Below are positions 1-7,067 of a DNA stretch of 24,000 nt, one piece after another. Origin of the DNA: Gracilimonas amylolytica (lineage in GTDB: Bacteria; Bacteroidota; Rhodothermia; Balneolales; Balneolaceae); assembly GCF_002911695.1 (NCBI RefSeq), contig NZ_PQBS01000019.1:10002-34001 (forward strand), given 5' to 3'. A model generated the notes under the pieces. It did no database searches and was not told the origin of the DNA. It saw only the letters and a program-made list of their open reading frames with translations. Position 1 is the first letter of the stretch; every line of letters begins with the position of its first letter. The translations under genes and the position numbers were made by a program.

Positions 1-66
1 GAAGAACTGAAGGAAGCCGGAGCATCTGATATCGTGATGTTGCCGATCGAAAGTATGATCCTATAG
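1..66 (+). CDS. hisG: ATP phosphoribosyltransferase, C-terminal fragment (5' end lies outside the window)
   Basis: Frame 1 reads EELKEAGASDIVMLPIESMIL then TAG. This resembles the conserved long-form HisG C-terminus (..LKALGAS.ILVLPIEKM..). It sits directly upstream of hisD, as in hisGDCBH operons. Confidence 0.75.
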   Translation, partial: EELKEAGASDIVMLPIESMIL

Positions 67-89
67 AACATTGAACAAGGAATATTGAA
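62..89 (+). repeat. Degenerate heptad tract TATAGAA CATTGAA CAAGGAA TATTGAA overlapping the hisG stop codon
   Basis: Four consecutive 7-nt units each end in GAA. The hisG TAG (64-66) lies in the first unit. The tract contains the 13-nt motif AAGGAATATTGAA (77-89), which recurs exactly at 1485-1497. Confidence 0.6.
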
Positions 90-152
90 CCTGCCTCGCC
101 GGCAGGCAGGTATCGAAGTATTCGAAACTCGTTCCGTCGCTTCGCTACGGAA
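90..152 (+). other. Three consecutive short hairpins in the hisG-hisD spacer
   Basis: The hairpins are CCTGCC(90-95)/GGCAGG(101-106), TCGAA(113-117)/TTCGA(121-125) and TTCCGT(132-137)/ACGGAA(147-152). None is followed by a T-run. Confidence 0.4.
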
Positions 153-191
153 TGCCAAACTGAGGCCTGCTTTAAACTATAAGGCAAAGAA

Positions 192-1478
192 ATGAAAAAA
201 TACAACTATTCTGAATTATCACCGGAAGAGATCAGAGAGCTGCTGAAGCGGCCAAAAATTGATTTTAGCTCCATATTCCAAACGGTTCAACCCATAATTG
301 AAGCTGTTGAAGAAGAGGGCGATTCTGCCGTGATCCGATATACGGAGCAATTTGATGGTGTGAAACTGAATGAGGTCACGTTGGATCCAAATGATGTTAA
401 GGTTCAGATAGACGCCTCGGTCAAAGAGGCCATAGATATTGCGTTCAGTAATATTTCCCAATTTCATAGGGCCCAGCAGGCACCGGACCTGCATGTGGAA
501 ACCATGCCGGGTGTGCGGTGCTCAAAAGTGAGTCGCCCGATCCAACGTGTTGGACTGTATATTCCCGGTGGAACCGCCGTTCTGCCTTCCACGGCGATGA
601 TGCTGGCTATTCCTGCCATGATCGCGGGTTGCACAACAAAAGTGTTAGCAACACCGCCCAAGAAAGATGGAAGTGTGGCACCGGAGATCATTTACATTGC
701 CCAGAAAGCCGGGATCAATACGATACTTTTAGCCGGTGGTGCCCAGGCTGTGGCAGCATTGGCTGTGGGAACCGAAAGTGTGCCCAAAGTGGACAAGATC
801 TTTGGGCCGGGAAATCAATATGTGACAGCGGCGAAAATGATCCTTCAAAATTCGGAGGCTCAGATCAGTATTGACATGCCGGCCGGGCCTTCTGAAGTTC
901 TGGTCATTGCCGATGCTGAAGCCAATCCTGCTTATGTTGCAGCCGACTTGCTGTCTCAGGCAGAACACGGAAGTGACAGTCAGGTAGTTTTGGTAGCCAC
1001 TGAAGATTTTGACATGAATGAATTGGAGCATGAACTAAAAACCCAACTCAACGAGCTTCCCCGAAAAGAAATGGCAACCGGGGCTTTGGATAACAGTTTC
1101 AGCCTTGTGGTGAAGTCGCTTGATGAGGCTTTTGAGTTTTCAAATCAGTATGCGCCCGAGCATTTAATTGTGAATGTGAAAGAAGCTGAATCGTATGTGG
1201 ATGAGATCATCAATGCGGGGTCGGTCTTCCTGGGACAGTTGACCCCGGAAAGTGTGGGGGATTATGCTTCCGGCACTAATCACACATTGCCAACTTATGG
1301 GTATGCCCGCATGTACAGCGGGGTGAATCTGGCCGCTTTTCAGAAATCAGTGACCATGCAATCTCTTACAGAAGAAGGGTTGAAAAATGTGGGTCCTGCA
1401 GTGGAAATACTGGCGGAATTAGAAGAACTTCAGGCGCATAAAAATGCCGTCAGCCTTCGGTTGAAGAATATCGAATAG
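192..1478 (+). CDS. hisD: Histidinol dehydrogenase
   Basis: The 428-aa ORF shows HisD hallmarks: [40 protein letters not shown] and AHKNAV near the C-terminus. It is in an operon with hisG and hisC. Confidence 0.95.
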
Positions 1479-1507
1479 TGAATAAAGGAATATTGAATTT
1501 GAAGTTG
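1463..1507 (+). repeat. Degenerate GAA-phased heptad tract spanning the hisD stop codon
   Basis: The sequence reads GAAGAAT atc GAATAGT GAATAAA g GAATATT GAATTT GAAGTTG. The hisD TAG (1476-1478) lies inside the unit GAATAGT. The tract includes the exact 13-mer AAGGAATATTGAA (1485-1497). Confidence 0.5.
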
Positions 1508-1516
1508 TAATAACAC

Positions 1517-1613
1517 CGGAATAGAACAAGGATGACGCAGATTTAGCAGATGATCGCTGATATAAATTTAGATCTTTGGGCATGCGTAAAAGGCGCTTCA
1601 TCCGCGTTTCAAT
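1517..1613 (+). repeat. Intercistronic hairpin-forming repeat element, copy 1 (hisD-hisC spacer)
   Basis: It aligns by eye with 2722-2820: CGGaATaGAACaaGGATGAcGCaGATTT...AGAT...CGCtGATATAAATTTA ... CATCCGCGTTtCAAT. The terminal arms GGATGACGC and GCTTCATCC are inverted. The GCWGAT motif recurs within it. Confidence 0.7.
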
Positions 1614-1659
1614 TCAAAAGCAGAAATAATATATAGCAGTACACCATAAATCATTAGGA

Positions 1660-2712
1660 ATGAAAAAAATTGACGTTAGTGCCCTGGTGAGGGAAAACAT
1701 CCGTGATCTCAAACCTTACAGAAGTGCCCGGGATGATTTCGACTCAGGGATCTTACTGGATGCCAACGAGAATAGTTTTGGTGCTCCTTTCGCGGATGAC
1801 CTTGAGCTGAACCGTTATCCAATGCCGTATCAGAACGAACTGCGTGATAAGATCGCAGCATTCCGGGGTGTGGATACAGAGAATGTGTTTGTGGGTGTGG
1901 GAAGTGATGAGGCCATTGAATTACTGTTCAGGATATTTTGTAAGCCCGGGAAAGATCGGGTGATCATCAACCCACCTACCTATGGTATGTACAAAGTATC
2001 TGCCGCGATCAACGATGTGGCTGTGGATGAAGTACTTTTGACGGAGAATTTTCAGCTTCAGCCTGATAAGATCCTTGAAGCGGTTCAACCCGAGACCAAA
2101 ATGATCTTTATTTGTTCTCCCAACAATCCTACAGCCAACAGCCTGGATATTGATGACATCATGCAGGTGCTCAATGAATTTGAAGGGATCGTAGTGATCG
2201 ATGAGGCATATGTTGATTTCAGTACTCAGGCCAGTTTAGTGGGAAATCTCACTGACTATAACAACCTTGTGGTGCTGCAAACTATGTCGAAATCATTTGG
2301 GTTAGCGGGCATAAGGCTGGGAATTGCCCTGGCTGATGCGGAGATCATATCCTACTTTTTGAAGGTGAAGGCGCCATACAACATCAACAAACTGACGGCT
2401 CAAAAAGCGAATCAGGCATTCTCTAATCTGGATAATCTTCAGAAAAATATCAATGCTGTGTTAGAAGAAAGGGAACGGGTGATCAGTAAGCTGATTACTT
2501 TTCCTCAGGTTAAACGCGTGTACCCAACCGATGCCAATTTTGTGTTGTTCAGGATCGATGATGCCATGGAGGTGTATAAGAAACTGGCTGATGAGGGCGT
2601 GATCATTCGGTATCGGGGAAATGAACCCCATTGCGAAGATTGTTTAAGATTGACTGTAGGAACGTCCGTGGAAAGCGACCGGTTCTTCGCTGCATTAAAG
2701 AATATTCAATAG
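1660..2712 (+). CDS. hisC: Histidinol-phosphate aminotransferase
   Basis: The 350-aa ORF is a class-II aminotransferase. It has the LDANEN motif, CSPNNPT, IDEAY.DF and the PLP-lysine motif (QTMSKSFGLAGIRLG). It lies between hisD and hisB. Confidence 0.93.
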   Translation: MKKIDVSALVRENIRDLKPYRSARDDFDSGILLDANENSFGAPFADDLELNRYPMPYQNELRDKIAAFRGVDTENVFVGVGSDEAIELLFRIFCKPGKDRVIINPPTYGMYKVSAAINDVAVDEVLLTENFQLQPDKILEAVQPETKMIFICSPNNPTANSLDIDDIMQVLNEFEGIVVIDEAYVDFSTQASLVGNLTDYNNLVVLQTMSKSFGLAGIRLGIALADAEIISYFLKVKAPYNINKLTAQKANQAFSNLDNLQKNINAVLEERERVISKLITFPQVKRVYPTDANFVLFRIDDAMEVYKKLADEGVIIRYRGNEPHCEDCLRLTVGTSVESDRFFAALKNIQ

Positions 2713-2721
2713 TGGATACAA

Positions 2722-2820
2722 CGGTATGGAACCCGGATGATGCTGATTTTATAGATACCCGCAGATATAAAATTTACTCATCAGTGGTAATCCGCTGAAT
2801 CTGTGTCATCCGCGTTCAAT
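2722..2820 (+). repeat. Intercistronic hairpin-forming repeat element, copy 2 (hisC-hisB spacer)
   Basis: This is the same element as 1517-1613. Its inverted arms are CGGATGATGCTGATT (2734-2748) and AATCTGTGTCATCCG (2798-2812). In RNA they pair over about 15 positions, allowing G-U pairs and one mismatch. Confidence 0.7.
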
Positions 2821-2893
2821 ACGATTATTTTATTAAATAATATCAGCTTTAAATATCAAAAATGGACGACTTGTCCGCCTAAGAGGCTTAACC

Positions 2894-3778
2894 ATGTTGA
2901 TCTCAATTACCAAAAACGCACTGAACGACCCTTCCGAAACGTTCATATTCCGTCCAAATACCATTTCTGTCTTAAAACAAATTGTGGGTGGGGGACGTGA
3001 CCTGCATATTCCAACGGATGCCATTTCATCTCAGCAAAGGTTGGTATTGGAACAGGAAGGGATCTCGTTTGTTGAAAAAGGGGATGCAGATCTGGTTATC
3101 ACTGAAGATGAAGGGAAGCTTAAACTTCTCAAAAAGGAAGAAGTATTGATCACTTCAAAGGAGTGGGAGCCTGTGATCGGGTTTATCATCCGGAAAGCGC
3201 GTAAGGCAAGTATTCAGCGAAAAACGAATGAGACGAATATCAGCATAGATGTAAATTTGGATGGCACGGGTAAGGCAGATATCTCAACCGGATTAAACTT
3301 CTTTGATCACATGCTGGATCAGATCGCCCGGCATGGTTTGATCGATATGAACCTGAAATGCGAGGGGGACCTTGAAGTTGATGAGCACCACACCATTGAA
3401 GATGTAGCCATTGCATTGGGCGAAGTGATCACTAAAGCCCTGGGAAACAAGATGGGAATTGAGCGTTATGGTTTCGTGTTACCAATGGACGAAACGCAAG
3501 CTACCGTGGCTATTGACCTGTCAGGCCGGCCATATCTGGTGTTCGAAGGAGACTTCAAGAGAGAATATGTTGGAGACTTCCCCACAGAAATGGTTGAGCA
3601 TTTTTTTTATAGCCTGGCAATGAACTTGAAGGCGACATTACATGTTAGCTTTTCAGGTAAAAATGACCACCACAAAATTGAAGCCTGCTTTAAGGGTCTC
3701 GCCCGGTCTTTAAAGATGGCTATAGAACAGAACGGGCGCATAAAAAATCTGGTCCCAAGTTCAAAAGGGACGCTGTAG
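2894..3778 (+). CDS. hisB: Imidazoleglycerol-phosphate dehydratase with a shortened, degenerate N-terminal HAD-phosphatase-like extension
   Basis: The C-terminal 190-195 aa are canonical IGPD: RKTNETNI, GLNFFDHMLDQIARHG, GDLEVDEHHTIEDVAIALG, GKNDHHKIEA and PSSKGTL. The N-terminal ~100 aa look like a remnant of the fused histidinol-phosphatase domain but lack the DxDGT nucleophile motif. An in-frame TAA at 2879-2881 blocks any upstream extension. Confidence 0.9.
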   Translation: MLISITKNALNDPSETFIFRPNTISVLKQIVGGGRDLHIPTDAISSQQRLVLEQEGISFVEKGDADLVITEDEGKLKLLKKEEVLITSKEWEPVIGFIIRKARKASIQRKTNETNISIDVNLDGTGKADISTGLNFFDHMLDQIARHGLIDMNLKCEGDLEVDEHHTIEDVAIALGEVITKALGNKMGIERYGFVLPMDETQATVAIDLSGRPYLVFEGDFKREYVGDFPTEMVEHFFYSLAMNLKATLHVSFSGKNDHHKIEACFKGLARSLKMAIEQNGRIKNLVPSSKGTL

Positions 3779-3785
3779 ATTACAT

Positions 3786-4406
3786 ATGATCGCTATCATC
3801 AAGTATAAAGCCGGTAACACAGCTTCAGTGGCCAATGCCCTGGAGCGGCTTGAAGCACGATATTTTTTTGCTGAGACACCTGAAGAACTTGAAAGTGCAA
3901 GAGCTGTAATATTTCCGGGTGTCGGACATGCCGGTGCTGCCATGGAGTCACTCAAGGAAAAAGGGGTGGATGAATGGCTGAAGAACACGAAAAAACCGGT
4001 ACTCGGTATCTGTGTCGGAATGCAGTTGATGTATGAAAATTCATCAGAAGGGGATACGGCAGGACTTGGGATCATTCCCGGTTCATTGAAAAAATTTGAT
4101 GAGTCTAAAGCCAAGGTTCCGCACATGGGCTGGAATAAATTAAAAAGCACAGGACAACATCCTATCCTTAAAAATCTGATCGAAAAAAACTACCTGTATT
4201 TTGTGCATAGTTACTACGCGCCTGTAAGTGAGCATACTTTAGCTACCTGTAATTATATCAACAACTTTTCAGCAATAGTTGCCAAGGATAATTTTATTGG
4301 GGTTCAATTCCACCCGGAAAAATCAGGAAGTGTCGGCTCAATGATCCTTCAAAATTTTCTGGATCTTGTTTACTCTCCTAAAGCAGCCAATGCCCTGGAT
4401 AAATAG
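3786..4406 (+). CDS. hisH: Imidazole glycerol phosphate synthase, glutamine amidotransferase subunit
   Basis: The 206-aa ORF is a class-I GATase with the GICVGMQL nucleophile elbow, HMGWN, FVHSY and QFHPEKS. It starts 7 nt after hisB. Confidence 0.93.
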   Translation: MIAIIKYKAGNTASVANALERLEARYFFAETPEELESARAVIFPGVGHAGAAMESLKEKGVDEWLKNTKKPVLGICVGMQLMYENSSEGDTAGLGIIPGSLKKFDESKAKVPHMGWNKLKSTGQHPILKNLIEKNYLYFVHSYYAPVSEHTLATCNYINNFSAIVAKDNFIGVQFHPEKSGSVGSMILQNFLDLVYSPKAANALDK

Positions 4407-4495
4407 GATGAAGGTGTAGCTCTTCACCTTAACTTCACGTGTTTCAGGTATTTTCTTTTGACCTTAGTTTTGGTTAAATAACCGGGGAGGTCAAT

Positions 4496-5254
4496 ATGAT
4501 ACTATCCAAATCCAAAGCCTGTTTACTTTCACTGTTTTTACTGCTTCTTTCGGGAACAGTTTTGGCACAGAATGCATCCGAGATCGTGAAGAAAATGGAT
4601 GAAAAAATGCGGGGGGAATCGCTGGAAGCCGAGGTTACCATGACTATTGTCAGGCCGGATTGGAGTCGGGAAGTATCCATGAAGAGCTGGAGTCGCGGTT
4701 CAGAATACTCAATGATCTTGATCACAGCCCCTGCCCGCGATAGGGGTACCGCTTTTCTTAAACGAGGTAACGAAATTTGGAACTGGATCCCGAATGTGGG
4801 AAGAACCATAAAAATGCCACCATCAATGATGATGCAGTCATGGATGGGCTCTGATTTCACCAATGATGACCTGGTTCGTGAATCGTCTGCTGTGACAGAT
4901 TATGAGCATGAACTGGTTGGGGAAGAAACGATTCAGGGGTACGAGTGCTATAAGATCGAAATGACCCCCAAACCGGATGCCCCGGTTGTATGGACGAGAG
5001 TGGATGTGTGGATCTCAAAGGAAGAATACATCGAATTAAGAGCAGAGTTTTATGATGAATTCGGGGAATTGATCAATGTGATGAATGGCATGGATGTGAA
5101 GGATTTTAACGGGCGGCAGATACCCTCACGCATGGAAATGATCCCAATGGATAAAGAAGGCCATATGACAATACTTGAATACAGATCTATGGAATTCAAT
5201 GAAAACATCTCTGAAAGATTCTTTAGCGTGCAGAATATGAGAAGAGTTCAGTGA
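4496..5254 (+). CDS. LolA-like outer-membrane lipoprotein-sorting protein (secreted)
   Basis: The 252-aa ORF has a signal peptide (LLLLSGTVLAQ) followed by the pattern typical of the LolA_like family: W.W.P....I......Q.WMGSDFTNDDL, CYKIEM.PK, and a C-terminal FS...M.R. Confidence 0.75.
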   Translation: MILSKSKACLLSLFLLLLSGTVLAQNASEIVKKMDEKMRGESLEAEVTMTIVRPDWSREVSMKSWSRGSEYSMILITAPARDRGTAFLKRGNEIWNWIPNVGRTIKMPPSMMMQSWMGSDFTNDDLVRESSAVTDYEHELVGEETIQGYECYKIEMTPKPDAPVVWTRVDVWISKEEYIELRAEFYDEFGELINVMNGMDVKDFNGRQIPSRMEMIPMDKEGHMTILEYRSMEFNENISERFFSVQNMRRVQ

Positions 5255-5283
5255 TCAGTTATCAGTGAACAGTGATCAGTACC
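5249..5283 (+). repeat. Heptamer tract T1: CAGTGAT CAGTTAT CAGTGAA CAGTGAT CAGTACC
   Basis: Five tandem 7-nt units share CAGT and an A at position 6. The first unit encodes the last codon (CAG) and the TGA stop (5252-5254) of the LolA-like gene. Confidence 0.9.
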
Positions 5284-5328
5284 CAAAGTATATTATAACT
5301 TGATTGTTGAATCCAGTTCGGCCAGCTT

Positions 5329-5398
5329 CTGCTAACTGCTAACTGCTAACTGCTAACTGCTAACTGCTAACTGCTAACTGCTAACTGCTAACTGCTAA
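5329..5398 (-). repeat. Heptamer tract T2: perfect (CTGCTAA)x10, which is (CAGTTAG)n on the minus strand
   Basis: Ten exact tandem copies were counted base by base (5329-5335 through 5392-5398). The tract is the reverse-complement orientation of T1. It provides the last codons and the TAG stop (5388-5390) of the minus-strand four-helix-bundle ORF. Confidence 0.95.
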
Positions 5399-5753
5399 TC
5401 CTAGTCGTTTTTAATATGGAAAATAGAATTCTGCAAAGTTCATCTGCATCGTCATGCATACTATTAAACGTCTTAGAATTTATAAAATCAGTATCATACA
5501 ATAGGTTTAGCCAATACTTTGTTTCTAAAGATTCTTTGTATGCAATGGAAATTTTAGATGAAAAATCAGCTTTTGAAATGGCACCATTGGCTTCAGATAT
5601 ATTTGCGCCAATACTGGTTCCACATCGAAGTAACTGTTTTGAAAGCATAAATTAACGTTATTCTTTACTTAAGAATTGATATCCTTTAACAACCCGAATT
5701 GCAAATGCATATGCTTTTTTAGAATTAATGATGGATTACATTGTAAGAGCCAT
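5388..5753 (-). pseudogene. Four-helix-bundle protein gene (23S rRNA-intervening-sequence protein / Avd-like family) interrupted by three in-frame TAA codons
   Basis: The remaining 86-aa ORF (5388-5648) reads LSKQLLRCGTSIGANISEA..SKADF..KISIAYKESLETKYWLNLL, the core of this family. The same frame upstream reads MALTM*SIINSKKAYAFAIRVVKGYQFLSKE*R*F and then that ORF, which is the expected N-terminal helix. It is broken by TAA codons at 5736-5738, 5658-5660 and 5652-5654. The region is visibly more AT-rich than its neighbours. Confidence 0.7.
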
Positions 5754-5796
5754 TAAATCCAAAATCCTTACAGAATTTTTTAAAACATATGTAAAA

Positions 5797-5831
5797 CTGT
5801 TTACTGATCACTGTTAACTGCTCACTGAAAA
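5797..5831 (-). repeat. Heptamer tract T3: CTGTTTA CTGATCA CTGTTAA CTGCTCA CTGAAAA (minus strand: CAGTGAG CAGTTAA CAGTGAT CAGTAAA CAGTTTT)
   Basis: Five 7-nt units are in the same phase and orientation as T2 and inverted relative to T1. The tract ends 6 nt before the ATG of the first FtsX permease gene. Confidence 0.85.
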
Positions 5832-5837
5832 ACGAAC

Positions 5838-7067
5838 ATGTTATATCTAAAATTAGCCTGGCGGAATATCTGGCGGAATAAGAGGCGCACGTTCATAACG
5901 ATGCTATCAATTATTGTGGCCGTCATGCTCTCGTCAGTTATGAGGACGATGAACGAAGGTTCCTATGAGCAGATGATCGAAAATACGGTCGGCATCTTTA
6001 CCGGTTATGTACAAATACATCAAAAAGGGTACTGGGACGACAAGACACTCGAAAACACGTTGGTTTCTTCAGACACACTGTTCCAGATCATTGCCCAAAC
6101 TCCCGGCATTACAAAAGCAGTTCCAAGAATTGAATCCTACGCTTTGGTAGCAGGAGAGAACCAAAGCCGAGCCGCTATGGTCATCGGCATAGATCCTGAA
6201 AAAGAAAGGTCTTTAAGTGATCCTCAAAACCGGATCGTTACAGGTTCCTATTTTGAAGATTTAAATGAGCGATCGGTCCTTTTGGGAACCGACTTGGTGC
6301 AGAGACTTGAGCTACAGGTAGGAGACAGCCTTGTGATGATCGGGCAGGGATTCAGAGGACAAAGCGCAGCCGGATTATACGAAGTGAAAGGAACCGTGCG
6401 GTTTCCAAATCCGGAAATGAATAAAAGCCTGGTTATGATGCCACTCGGAACGGCTCAGTTCTTTTTAGCCGCTCCCGACAGACTTACTGGGATCTCACTT
6501 ATTATTGAGGATTCTGATGACGCAGAATCGGTTACAAAGATACTATCGGGTTATTTATCGAGCGAGGATTATGAGGTCATGGACTGGAAGGAACTGATGC
6601 CTGAGTTGGTTCAGGCCATTGAGTCGGATCGGGGCAGTGGGTTAATCATTATCATGATATTGTATGTGGTTGTTGGTTTTGGAATACTGGGAACCGTTCT
6701 CATGATGATCACGGAACGCACTTACGAATTCGGTGTGATGATATCGGTAGGAACATCAAGGTTTGCAATTGCGATGATGCTGGCCTTTGAGGTCTTACTC
6801 ATGGCCATGGCAGGGTCACTCGTTGGTATTGTTGCCTCCTATCCAATTTCATACTACTTCCACATAAATCCGATCCGTTTGTCAGACAGTGGAGACATGG
6901 CACAGGTTATTGAGACATTCGGTATGGAACCGGTCCTTCAGTTTTCACTTGAACCTTCACTATTCTACTCTCAGGCCATCATCATTTTTGTGATCACCCT
7001 GATCTTTTGCCTCATACCTATTCTTAAAGCCAGTCGGTTGAATCCTGTTAAAGCGATGAGGTCCTGA
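5838..7067 (+). CDS. ABC transporter permease, FtsX/MacB-LolCE type
   Basis: The 409-aa ORF has an N-terminal L.LAWRNIWRNKRRT motif and TM1, a ~230-aa periplasmic domain, then three C-terminal TM helices. It ends with ..A.RL.PV.AMR, as FtsX-family permeases do. Confidence 0.9.
   Translation: MLYLKLAWRNIWRNKRRTFITMLSIIVAVMLSSVMRTMNEGSYEQMIENTVGIFTGYVQIHQKGYWDDKTLENTLVSSDTLFQIIAQTPGITKAVPRIESYALVAGENQSRAAMVIGIDPEKERSLSDPQNRIVTGSYFEDLNERSVLLGTDLVQRLELQVGDSLVMIGQGFRGQSAAGLYEVKGTVRFPNPEMNKSLVMMPLGTAQFFLAAPDRLTGISLIIEDSDDAESVTKILSGYLSSEDYEVMDWKELMPELVQAIESDRGSGLIIIMILYVVVGFGILGTVLMMITERTYEFGVMISVGTSRFAIAMMLAFEVLLMAMAGSLVGIVASYPISYYFHINPIRLSDSGDMAQVIETFGMEPVLQFSLEPSLFYSQAIIIFVITLIFCLIPILKASRLNPVKAMRS

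Follow-up and report, generated by a model that had tools for sequence, protein, structure and literature searches.

The stretch of DNA considered here (the window; 24,000 nucleotides, nt, of contig NZ_PQBS01000019.1 of Gracilimonas amylolytica, Balneolaceae) opens on the end of hisG and continues with hisD, hisC, hisB, and hisH. The spacers between these genes are occupied by dispersed repeats: a hairpin-forming repeat of about 100 nt, termed family A, has one copy in each of the hisD–hisC and hisC–hisB spacers; a repeat made of short words, termed family B, lies at the ends of hisG and hisD; and a third module, module C, follows family B in the hisG–hisD spacer (Table 1). An earlier reading of the window (the original prediction) had described a composite repeat element that fills the hisD–hisC and hisC–hisB spacers and overwrites the ends of the genes upstream. 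The word composite was apt, as the spacers are mosaics of repeat modules. The gene map confirms that both spacers are 181 nt long, and this equality is the coincidence that had been suspected; in the closest relative, the spacers are 138 and 181 nt.

The plus strand of both spacers contains neither an intrinsic terminator (a GC-rich hairpin with a T run behind it) nor a sigma-70 promoter, as judged by consensus scans, and a search of positions 1–6000 of the window with Rfam covariance models gave nothing at E<=1. A small hairpin at the 3′ end of the hisC–hisB spacer is also present in the relatives L002, L005, and L009, as seen in the spacer alignment, and scores solely as a minus-strand terminator-like site.

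Table 1. Features of the his region in order of position in the window (HMM, hidden Markov model; CM, covariance model; E, expectation value).
Feature	Position	Strand	Basis or remark
hisG end	stop codon 64–66	+	window opens on it
Family B repeat, hisG–hisD spacer	66..127	+	B HMM match 62–114, E 5.4e-9
Module C, CTCGTTCCG...CGGAATGCC then GAGGCCTGC	128..170	+	regular-expression census
hisD (histidinol dehydrogenase)	192–1478	+	TIGR00069, E 1.6e-152
Family B word array, hisD end	1466..1506	+	B HMM match, E 1.4e-5; alignment starts at the first model word
Family A copy 1	1505..1619 (core 1519–1614)	+	HMM and CM matches; gene-less, inner stem decayed
hisC (histidinol-phosphate aminotransferase)	1660–2712	+	TIGR01141, E 1.4e-110
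B-like words GAATATTCAA TAGTGGAT, hisC end and stop	2698..2720	+	20/24 match to 1461–1484
Family A copy 2	2711..2829 (core 2724–2822)	+	HMM and CM matches; gene-less, hairpin intact
Small hairpin GGACGAC/GTCCGCC	2864..2879	+	spacer alignment; directly 5′ of the hisB start
hisB (imidazoleglycerol-phosphate dehydratase)	2894–3778	+	NF002111, E 9.6e-83, residues 101–294

Family A Repeats in the Genome

The downstream parts of the two spacers had been taken for copies of one element, and they are: positions 1513–1569 and 2718–2774 share 74% identity, and an HMM built without both his copies matches 1507–1612 (E 5.5e-16) and 2713–2826 (E 1.4e-21). The CM likewise matches copy 1 (E 8.8e-8) and copy 2 (E 4.8e-14), the latter being its top match in the genome. 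The genome-wide search that had been proposed for further copies was run with iterated nhmmer (plain BLAST with copy 1 missed even copy 2), and yielded about 30 family A loci in the genome under study (G000; 3.15 Mb). Full hairpins of 95–115 nt account for 10 or 11 of these loci, and the remainder are single arms. All of the loci are intergenic and none falls within a real gene, even though coding sequence takes up about 88% of the genome; on crude gene calls, 15 of the gaps that hold them are tandem, nine divergent, and six convergent. Two operons for amino-acid biosynthesis, his and trp, hold five of the approximately eleven full-length copies, and other copies adjoin pyrF, dnaK/tsaD, and many unrelated genes.

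The family A consensus is a long imperfect palindrome. Each arm consists of a GAAT(A/G)GAAC head followed by three to four CGGAT words at a spacing of about 10 nt, so that the termini are the inverted repeats GAATRGAAC...GTTCYATTC. In the his copies, the loop between the arms is just 15–25 nt or so, which leaves no room for a nuclease gene of the kind described below and makes these copies gene-less orphans.

Family A copies also cluster locally, in this genome on contigs C4, C7, C19, and C37; in another genome of the genus, five family A hairpins occur within 2.6 kb (G005:C2:311545–314159, locus L198).

Distribution across Phyla and Association with PF13366 Genes

The arms are not confined to the genus. 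A scan of 185,579 species genomes (596 Gb) for the terminal 17-mer returned at least 120 stretches, a count that is uninformative in itself given the approximately 280 chance matches that we estimate for a database of this size; however, nearly all of the matches run on as the same phased arm. The taxa that carry the arm include Chloroflexota, Planctomycetota, Acidobacteriota, Ignavibacteria, Flavobacterium and isolates of other Bacteroidota, a cyanobacterium, Methylobacter, Methanoperedens, and Gracilimonas/Balneolaceae. Viral contigs contained no exact match to a 24-nt arm pattern. An HMM constructed from 23 hairpins of other phyla only recovers copy 1 (E 3.4e-14) and copy 2 (E 1.2e-18) and detects 26 loci in the genome under study. 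Similarity by chance or low complexity would be suggested by the shortness and AT-richness of the words and by the expected number of 17-mer matches, but is refuted by the E-values of the HMMs from which the his copies were left out, by the continuation of the 17-mer matches as a phased arm, and by the rank of the hisD–hisC gene-end pair (in the top three of 3.16 million; see section Gene Ends within Repeats), and its probability is practically nil.

Some arms bracket a gene. An open reading frame (ORF) of the GxxExxY family (PF13366) stands directly beside an arm in five of 80 cross-phylum loci, and family A arms lie on both sides of a PF13366 gene in five of 33 loci of the genus, including one in the closest relative (G024); Pfam confirmed the assignment for four of four ORFs submitted. 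PF13366 is listed as a family of unknown function and has been transferred repeatedly between Bacteria and Archaea (PMC3424549). In the genome under study, all three PF13366 genes are bracketed by inverted arms built from other words, and the family A copies here are thus without a cognate gene. Ten genes of PF05635 (S23p, a four-helix-bundle family) likewise lie between inverted word arrays, and at one of them (G000:C8:83786–84070) the bracketing arms are those of family B. Literature searches on GxxExxY, PF13366, and S23p inverted repeats did not turn up any account of such arms.

Separately, positions 5246–5837 of the window contain a PF05635 remnant with two stop codons, surrounded by inverted tracts of the heptamer CAGTNAN and by a tandem array of CTGCTAA.

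This distribution bears on the idea that family A is a regulatory RNA that acts in cis and is dedicated to amino-acid operons, e.g., an attenuator, a T-box, or a riboswitch-like element. Five full copies in the his and trp operons are what such an RNA would lead one to expect. The element is nevertheless found in archaea and in many phyla beside nuclease genes, other copies lie by pyrF, dnaK/tsaD, and a range of unrelated genes, Rfam gives no match at E<=1, and the positions are between genes rather than in leaders and are empty of the element in sister species; a dedicated regulatory RNA is hence hardly credible.

Stem Structure and Covariation

Covariation was assessed in a set of 23 sequences (the two his copies and 21 copies from other phyla) over a 41-pair stem. 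In this stem, 83% of cells are paired, compared with 28–41% when the partner is slid. Structure-preserving covariation, which the original prediction had named as something to look for, is present: 63 cells are compensated, whereas shuffles give 39.6 ± 6.0 and reach the observed value in none of 500 trials. The bases between the CGGAT words vary among copies yet remain complementary inside each copy. The consensus pairs retained number 27 of 41 in copy 1 and 32 of 41 in copy 2.

The long RNA stem that had been proposed for the two copies exists in only one of them. Copy 2 folds at −35.4 kcal/mol (z −3.6), whereas copy 1, at −20.9 kcal/mol (z −0.14), is at the level of its shuffles and retains just the terminal stem. 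The decayed stem of copy 1 argues against a maintained hairpin function. Copy 2 is 95% identical to its counterpart in the closest relative (L002), and a family A element occupies the same hisC–hisB site in relatives with merely 77% HisC identity.

These observations are pertinent to a second alternative, in which domesticated hairpins resembling repetitive extragenic palindromes (REPs) and bacterial interspersed mosaic elements (BIMEs) would set differential stability or RNase processing of the his and trp mRNAs and so tune enzyme ratios. The location between co-transcribed genes of two biosynthetic operons, the stable hairpin of copy 2 with its covarying arms, and the retention of the element at the hisC–hisB and trpF–trpB junctions across much of the genus would all fit such a role. 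It sits badly with a copy 1 stem no better than shuffled sequence, with the absence of a terminator-like tail on the plus strand, with gaps that are divergent as commonly as convergent (REPs favor 3′ ends), and with the occurrence of the same sequence in unrelated contexts and phyla. The comparison of relatives adds that sister species have overlapping junctions and that copies at the same site are no more alike than copies at different sites (see section History of the his Junctions). On balance, tuning of mRNA stability is unlikely, although for copy 2 it is conceivable.

History of the his Junctions

The order hisD–hisC–hisB is kept in all 30 relatives examined, with spacers that range from −14 to 515 nt. 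In the outgroup families, hisC and hisB overlap by 4 nt in five of seven genomes, and several lineages of the genus have his junctions of −14 to +17 nt. The comparison with relatives that have tight his junctions, which the original prediction had recommended, therefore shows that tight or overlapping junctions are ancestral and that the repeats were inserted later. On a tree of HisD, HisC, and HisB, family A in a his spacer is confined to one sub-clade of eight genomes, all of which have expanded spacers. Within that sub-clade, the spacers are reshuffled mosaics, and positional homologs are no more alike than paralogs (0.75 vs. 0.63–0.74). By CM, family A is present in 21 of 25 other genomes of the genus, yet in only eight of 23 genera of the order, which is a patchy distribution.

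One polymorphic site was compared among genomes, and it shows turnover. The closest relative (G024) has there a family A hairpin and a PF13366 cassette with family A arms, 675 nt in all; the genome under study has at the same site (C12:36616–36834) an unrelated 219-nt intergenic filler with a GTCATCCCGAG...CTCAGGATGAC palindrome; and Gracilimonas sp. Q87, whose syntenic contigs are 81–83% identical in nucleotide sequence, has a decayed family A hairpin.

Gene Ends within Repeats

Family B consists of GAATATYGAA words, often followed by a CCTGCC...GGCAGG hairpin, and has 34 loci in the genome under study, ten of which contain the stop codon of a gene. The HMM used for the his sites excludes the his copies and was built from 11 other copies in the genome. 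The repeat behind hisG comprises GAACATTGAA and GAATATTGAA words, a CCTGCCTCGCCGGCAGGCAGG hairpin, and then TATCGAAG words, and its first G is the final base of the hisG stop codon. The array at the hisD end spans the last three hisD codons (AAT ATC GAA), the TAG stop codon, and 28 nt more. Module C, in the form CTCGTTCCG...CGGAATGC, is a third dispersed module that is also present in the his spacers of relatives; the regular-expression census of the genome gave 15 matches, about 13 of which are double hairpins (second part, GAGGC...GCCTC).

The original prediction had noted that the ends of two unrelated genes, hisD (1461–1484) and hisC (2695–2718), match at 21 of 24 positions. The likeness is real, with the count corrected to 20 of 24: among 3.16 million gene-end pairs in the genome, merely three non-paralogous pairs reach this value, and one of the other two is also produced by the family B (GAATATYGAA) repeat. 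The further claim that the repeats have overwritten the last codons of both genes stands for hisD, whose end lies inside the word array, and is only weakly borne out for hisC, because the hisC tail ALKNIQ is close to the ALENIQ of element-free relatives. The family B HMM has no significant match at the hisC end, and clear family B words occupy the hisC-end position in relatives (L003, L004, L008). Where no element is present, HisD can end in LRLK(D/N)(I/L)x and HisC in, e.g., ALENIQ; the tails of the his genes are therefore partly native.

A parallel is provided by the trp operon (G000:C7:90713–92918, locus L199), in which three full family A copies fill the trpC–trpF, trpF–trpB, and trpB–trpA junctions. 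Both trpC and trpF stop at the TAG inside the terminal GA(A/G)TAGAAC, and trpB stops at a TGA that belongs to the terminal motif; TAG makes up only 18.8% of the stop codons of this genome. In 24 genomes of the genus, which are related and so do not count as independent, trpF ends in GAATAG in five of the 11 genomes with a family A element behind trpF and in none of the 13 without one, and its stop codon is TAG in eight of 11 and one of 13, respectively. In the element-bearing relatives, the terminal GAATAG of family A replaces the native AATTAA end of trpF. Termini of both families supply stop codons in frame (GAA TAG in A; CAT TGA or TAG TGA in B), which is why an element inserted at a coupled junction can change the final codon or codons of the gene in front of it without abolishing termination. 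Taken together, the data support rewriting of gene ends by the elements, best at trpF and hisD and less well at hisC.

Comparison with Known Repeat Systems

The closest published analog is Ssn/NTS, in which small GIY-YIG single-strand nucleases are flanked by, and act on, their own dispersed hairpins (PMC11893778). Family A shares with that system a small nuclease gene bracketed by its own repeat and a majority of gene-less copies spread across the genome and across phyla. The partner is PF13366 rather than GIY-YIG, however, the repeat is a different one, the pair is known from sequence and is comparable by analogy only, and the genome under study has family A repeats without a nuclease gene with family A arms.

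REPs and their REP-associated tyrosine transposases (RAYTs) come next. As in REP/BIME and REPIN–RAYT systems, the elements are dispersed extragenic imperfect palindromes that form mosaics in operons, including his operons, and gene-less copies far exceed those that carry a gene. The original prediction had invoked REP/BIME elements, but membership in that class does not hold. A REP is a palindrome of 20–40 bp with a conserved GTAG or CGTC head (PMC3733652), whereas family A is about 100 nt long (95–115), lacks such a head and has GAATRGAAC in its place, and is built of arms of phased word arrays. REPs also prefer 3′ ends, a preference that is not evident in the gaps occupied by family A (half of them tandem, the others divergent or convergent, as counted above with crude gene calls). 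The partner is a PD-(D/E)XK-fold protein, not a HUH transposase; PF01797 (Y1/RAYT-like) has eight matches in the genome, and the hairpins on either side of those inspected are of other kinds, neither A nor B.

The insertions had also been likened to miniature inverted-repeat transposable elements (MITEs), i.e., non-autonomous transposon derivatives mobilized by a transposase (DDE or similar) whose gene lies elsewhere. Family A does resemble a MITE in being short (about 100 nt), non-coding, bounded by terminal inverted repeats, dispersed in intergenic regions, and patchy among relatives. At 23 sharply bounded copies, however, matches of 2–8 nt that could represent target-site duplications are at or below chance, and the arms consist of phased short words. 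No cognate transposase was found: only PF13366 nuclease genes turned up between family A arms, in the course of work that included no systematic transposase search. Classical MITEs are accordingly very improbable.

Intervening sequences of 23S rRNA that contain an S23p (PF05635) ORF are similar in that a small four-helix-bundle gene occupies the loop formed by a long inverted repeat, and one such gene has family B arms here. The elements described here, in contrast, lie between protein-coding genes, and RNase III processing would be hypothetical for them.

Other Features of the Window and the Genome

The his cluster ends at hisH, and the next ORF (4496–5254, within 4407–5254 of the window) is LolA-like (PF17131), not hisA. 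HisB is extended at its N terminus by about 100 amino acids (window 2894–3196), and residues 1–101 have no Pfam match; the extension is kept across the genus, is alignable in most outgroup families, and might be a degenerate phosphatase domain. Identical ORFs of 654 and 1014 nt stand at many contig ends of the genome (e.g., C8:47–700, C9:47–700, C10:47–700); these are probably insertion sequences present in multiple copies, at which the assembly breaks, and they lie behind the over-represented TKH and KSA protein tails.

Origin and Consequences of the his Repeats

The reading that we favor, and regard as likely, is that the family A copies of the his operon are orphan arms of a nuclease cassette that settled in operon junctions, are tolerated because their termini re-terminate the upstream gene, and are carried along in the his transcript. 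Repeat modules were inserted into tight or overlapping his junctions in one sub-clade of the Gracilimonas-like (Balneolaceae) genus. Family A (about 100–115 nt) is, in the his operon, the gene-less version of the inverted arms that bracket genes for PF13366 (PD-(D/E)XK-fold) proteins in the genus, in other phyla, and in archaea; family B, which adjoins or covers the stop codons of hisG and hisD, forms the arms of a PF05635 cassette located elsewhere in the genome. The elements might have spread, for example, through cleavage of the arms by the PF13366 nuclease. The family relationships, the cross-phylum spread, the covariation of the arms, the insertion history, and the rewritten gene ends are established by the data; beyond them, we infer that the elements of the his operon are co-transcribed passengers (selfish or neutral DNA) and not dedicated his regulators. 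Any effect on his expression would then be a side effect, through lost translational coupling or through a hairpin of about −35 kcal/mol in the hisC–hisB mRNA that may slow or attract RNases.

Three points weigh against this reading. The concentration of five of approximately eleven full copies in two amino-acid operons could reflect a role in operon expression, beyond tolerance. The stable hairpin of copy 2, its 95% identity to the counterpart in the closest relative, and a site held down to 77% HisC identity could reflect selection for function. In addition, no pair of near-identical strains with an empty and a filled site was found, and the one polymorphic site compared is a replacement rather than a clean insertion; we thus infer movement from the distribution.

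A broader proposal, which the present analysis makes conceivable although it is more doubtful than not by some distance, is that family A hairpins and the PF13366 nuclease may constitute an undescribed nuclease-plus-repeat system, spread over many phyla including archaea and comparable in its working to Ssn/NTS or REP/RAYT. Its gene-less copies would prefer stop codons and translationally coupled operon junctions because termini with GAATAG or TGA end the upstream gene anew, and they would thereby rewrite 3′ ends systematically and uncouple operons.

If the arms in the his operon are settled passengers, the large structured spacers in biosynthetic operons of this lineage would be colonized junctions and not regulatory leaders. 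The colonizing repeat is nearly unchanged in sequence between organisms as distant as Balneolaceae, Planctomycetota, and Methanoperedens, and our literature search found no earlier description of it. Such repeats alter the C-termini of proteins and their stop codons, give rise to spurious small ORFs in annotations, and probably break translational coupling. Should the PF13366 nuclease indeed act on the arms, the pair would join Ssn/NTS as a second widespread system of nuclease and repeat.

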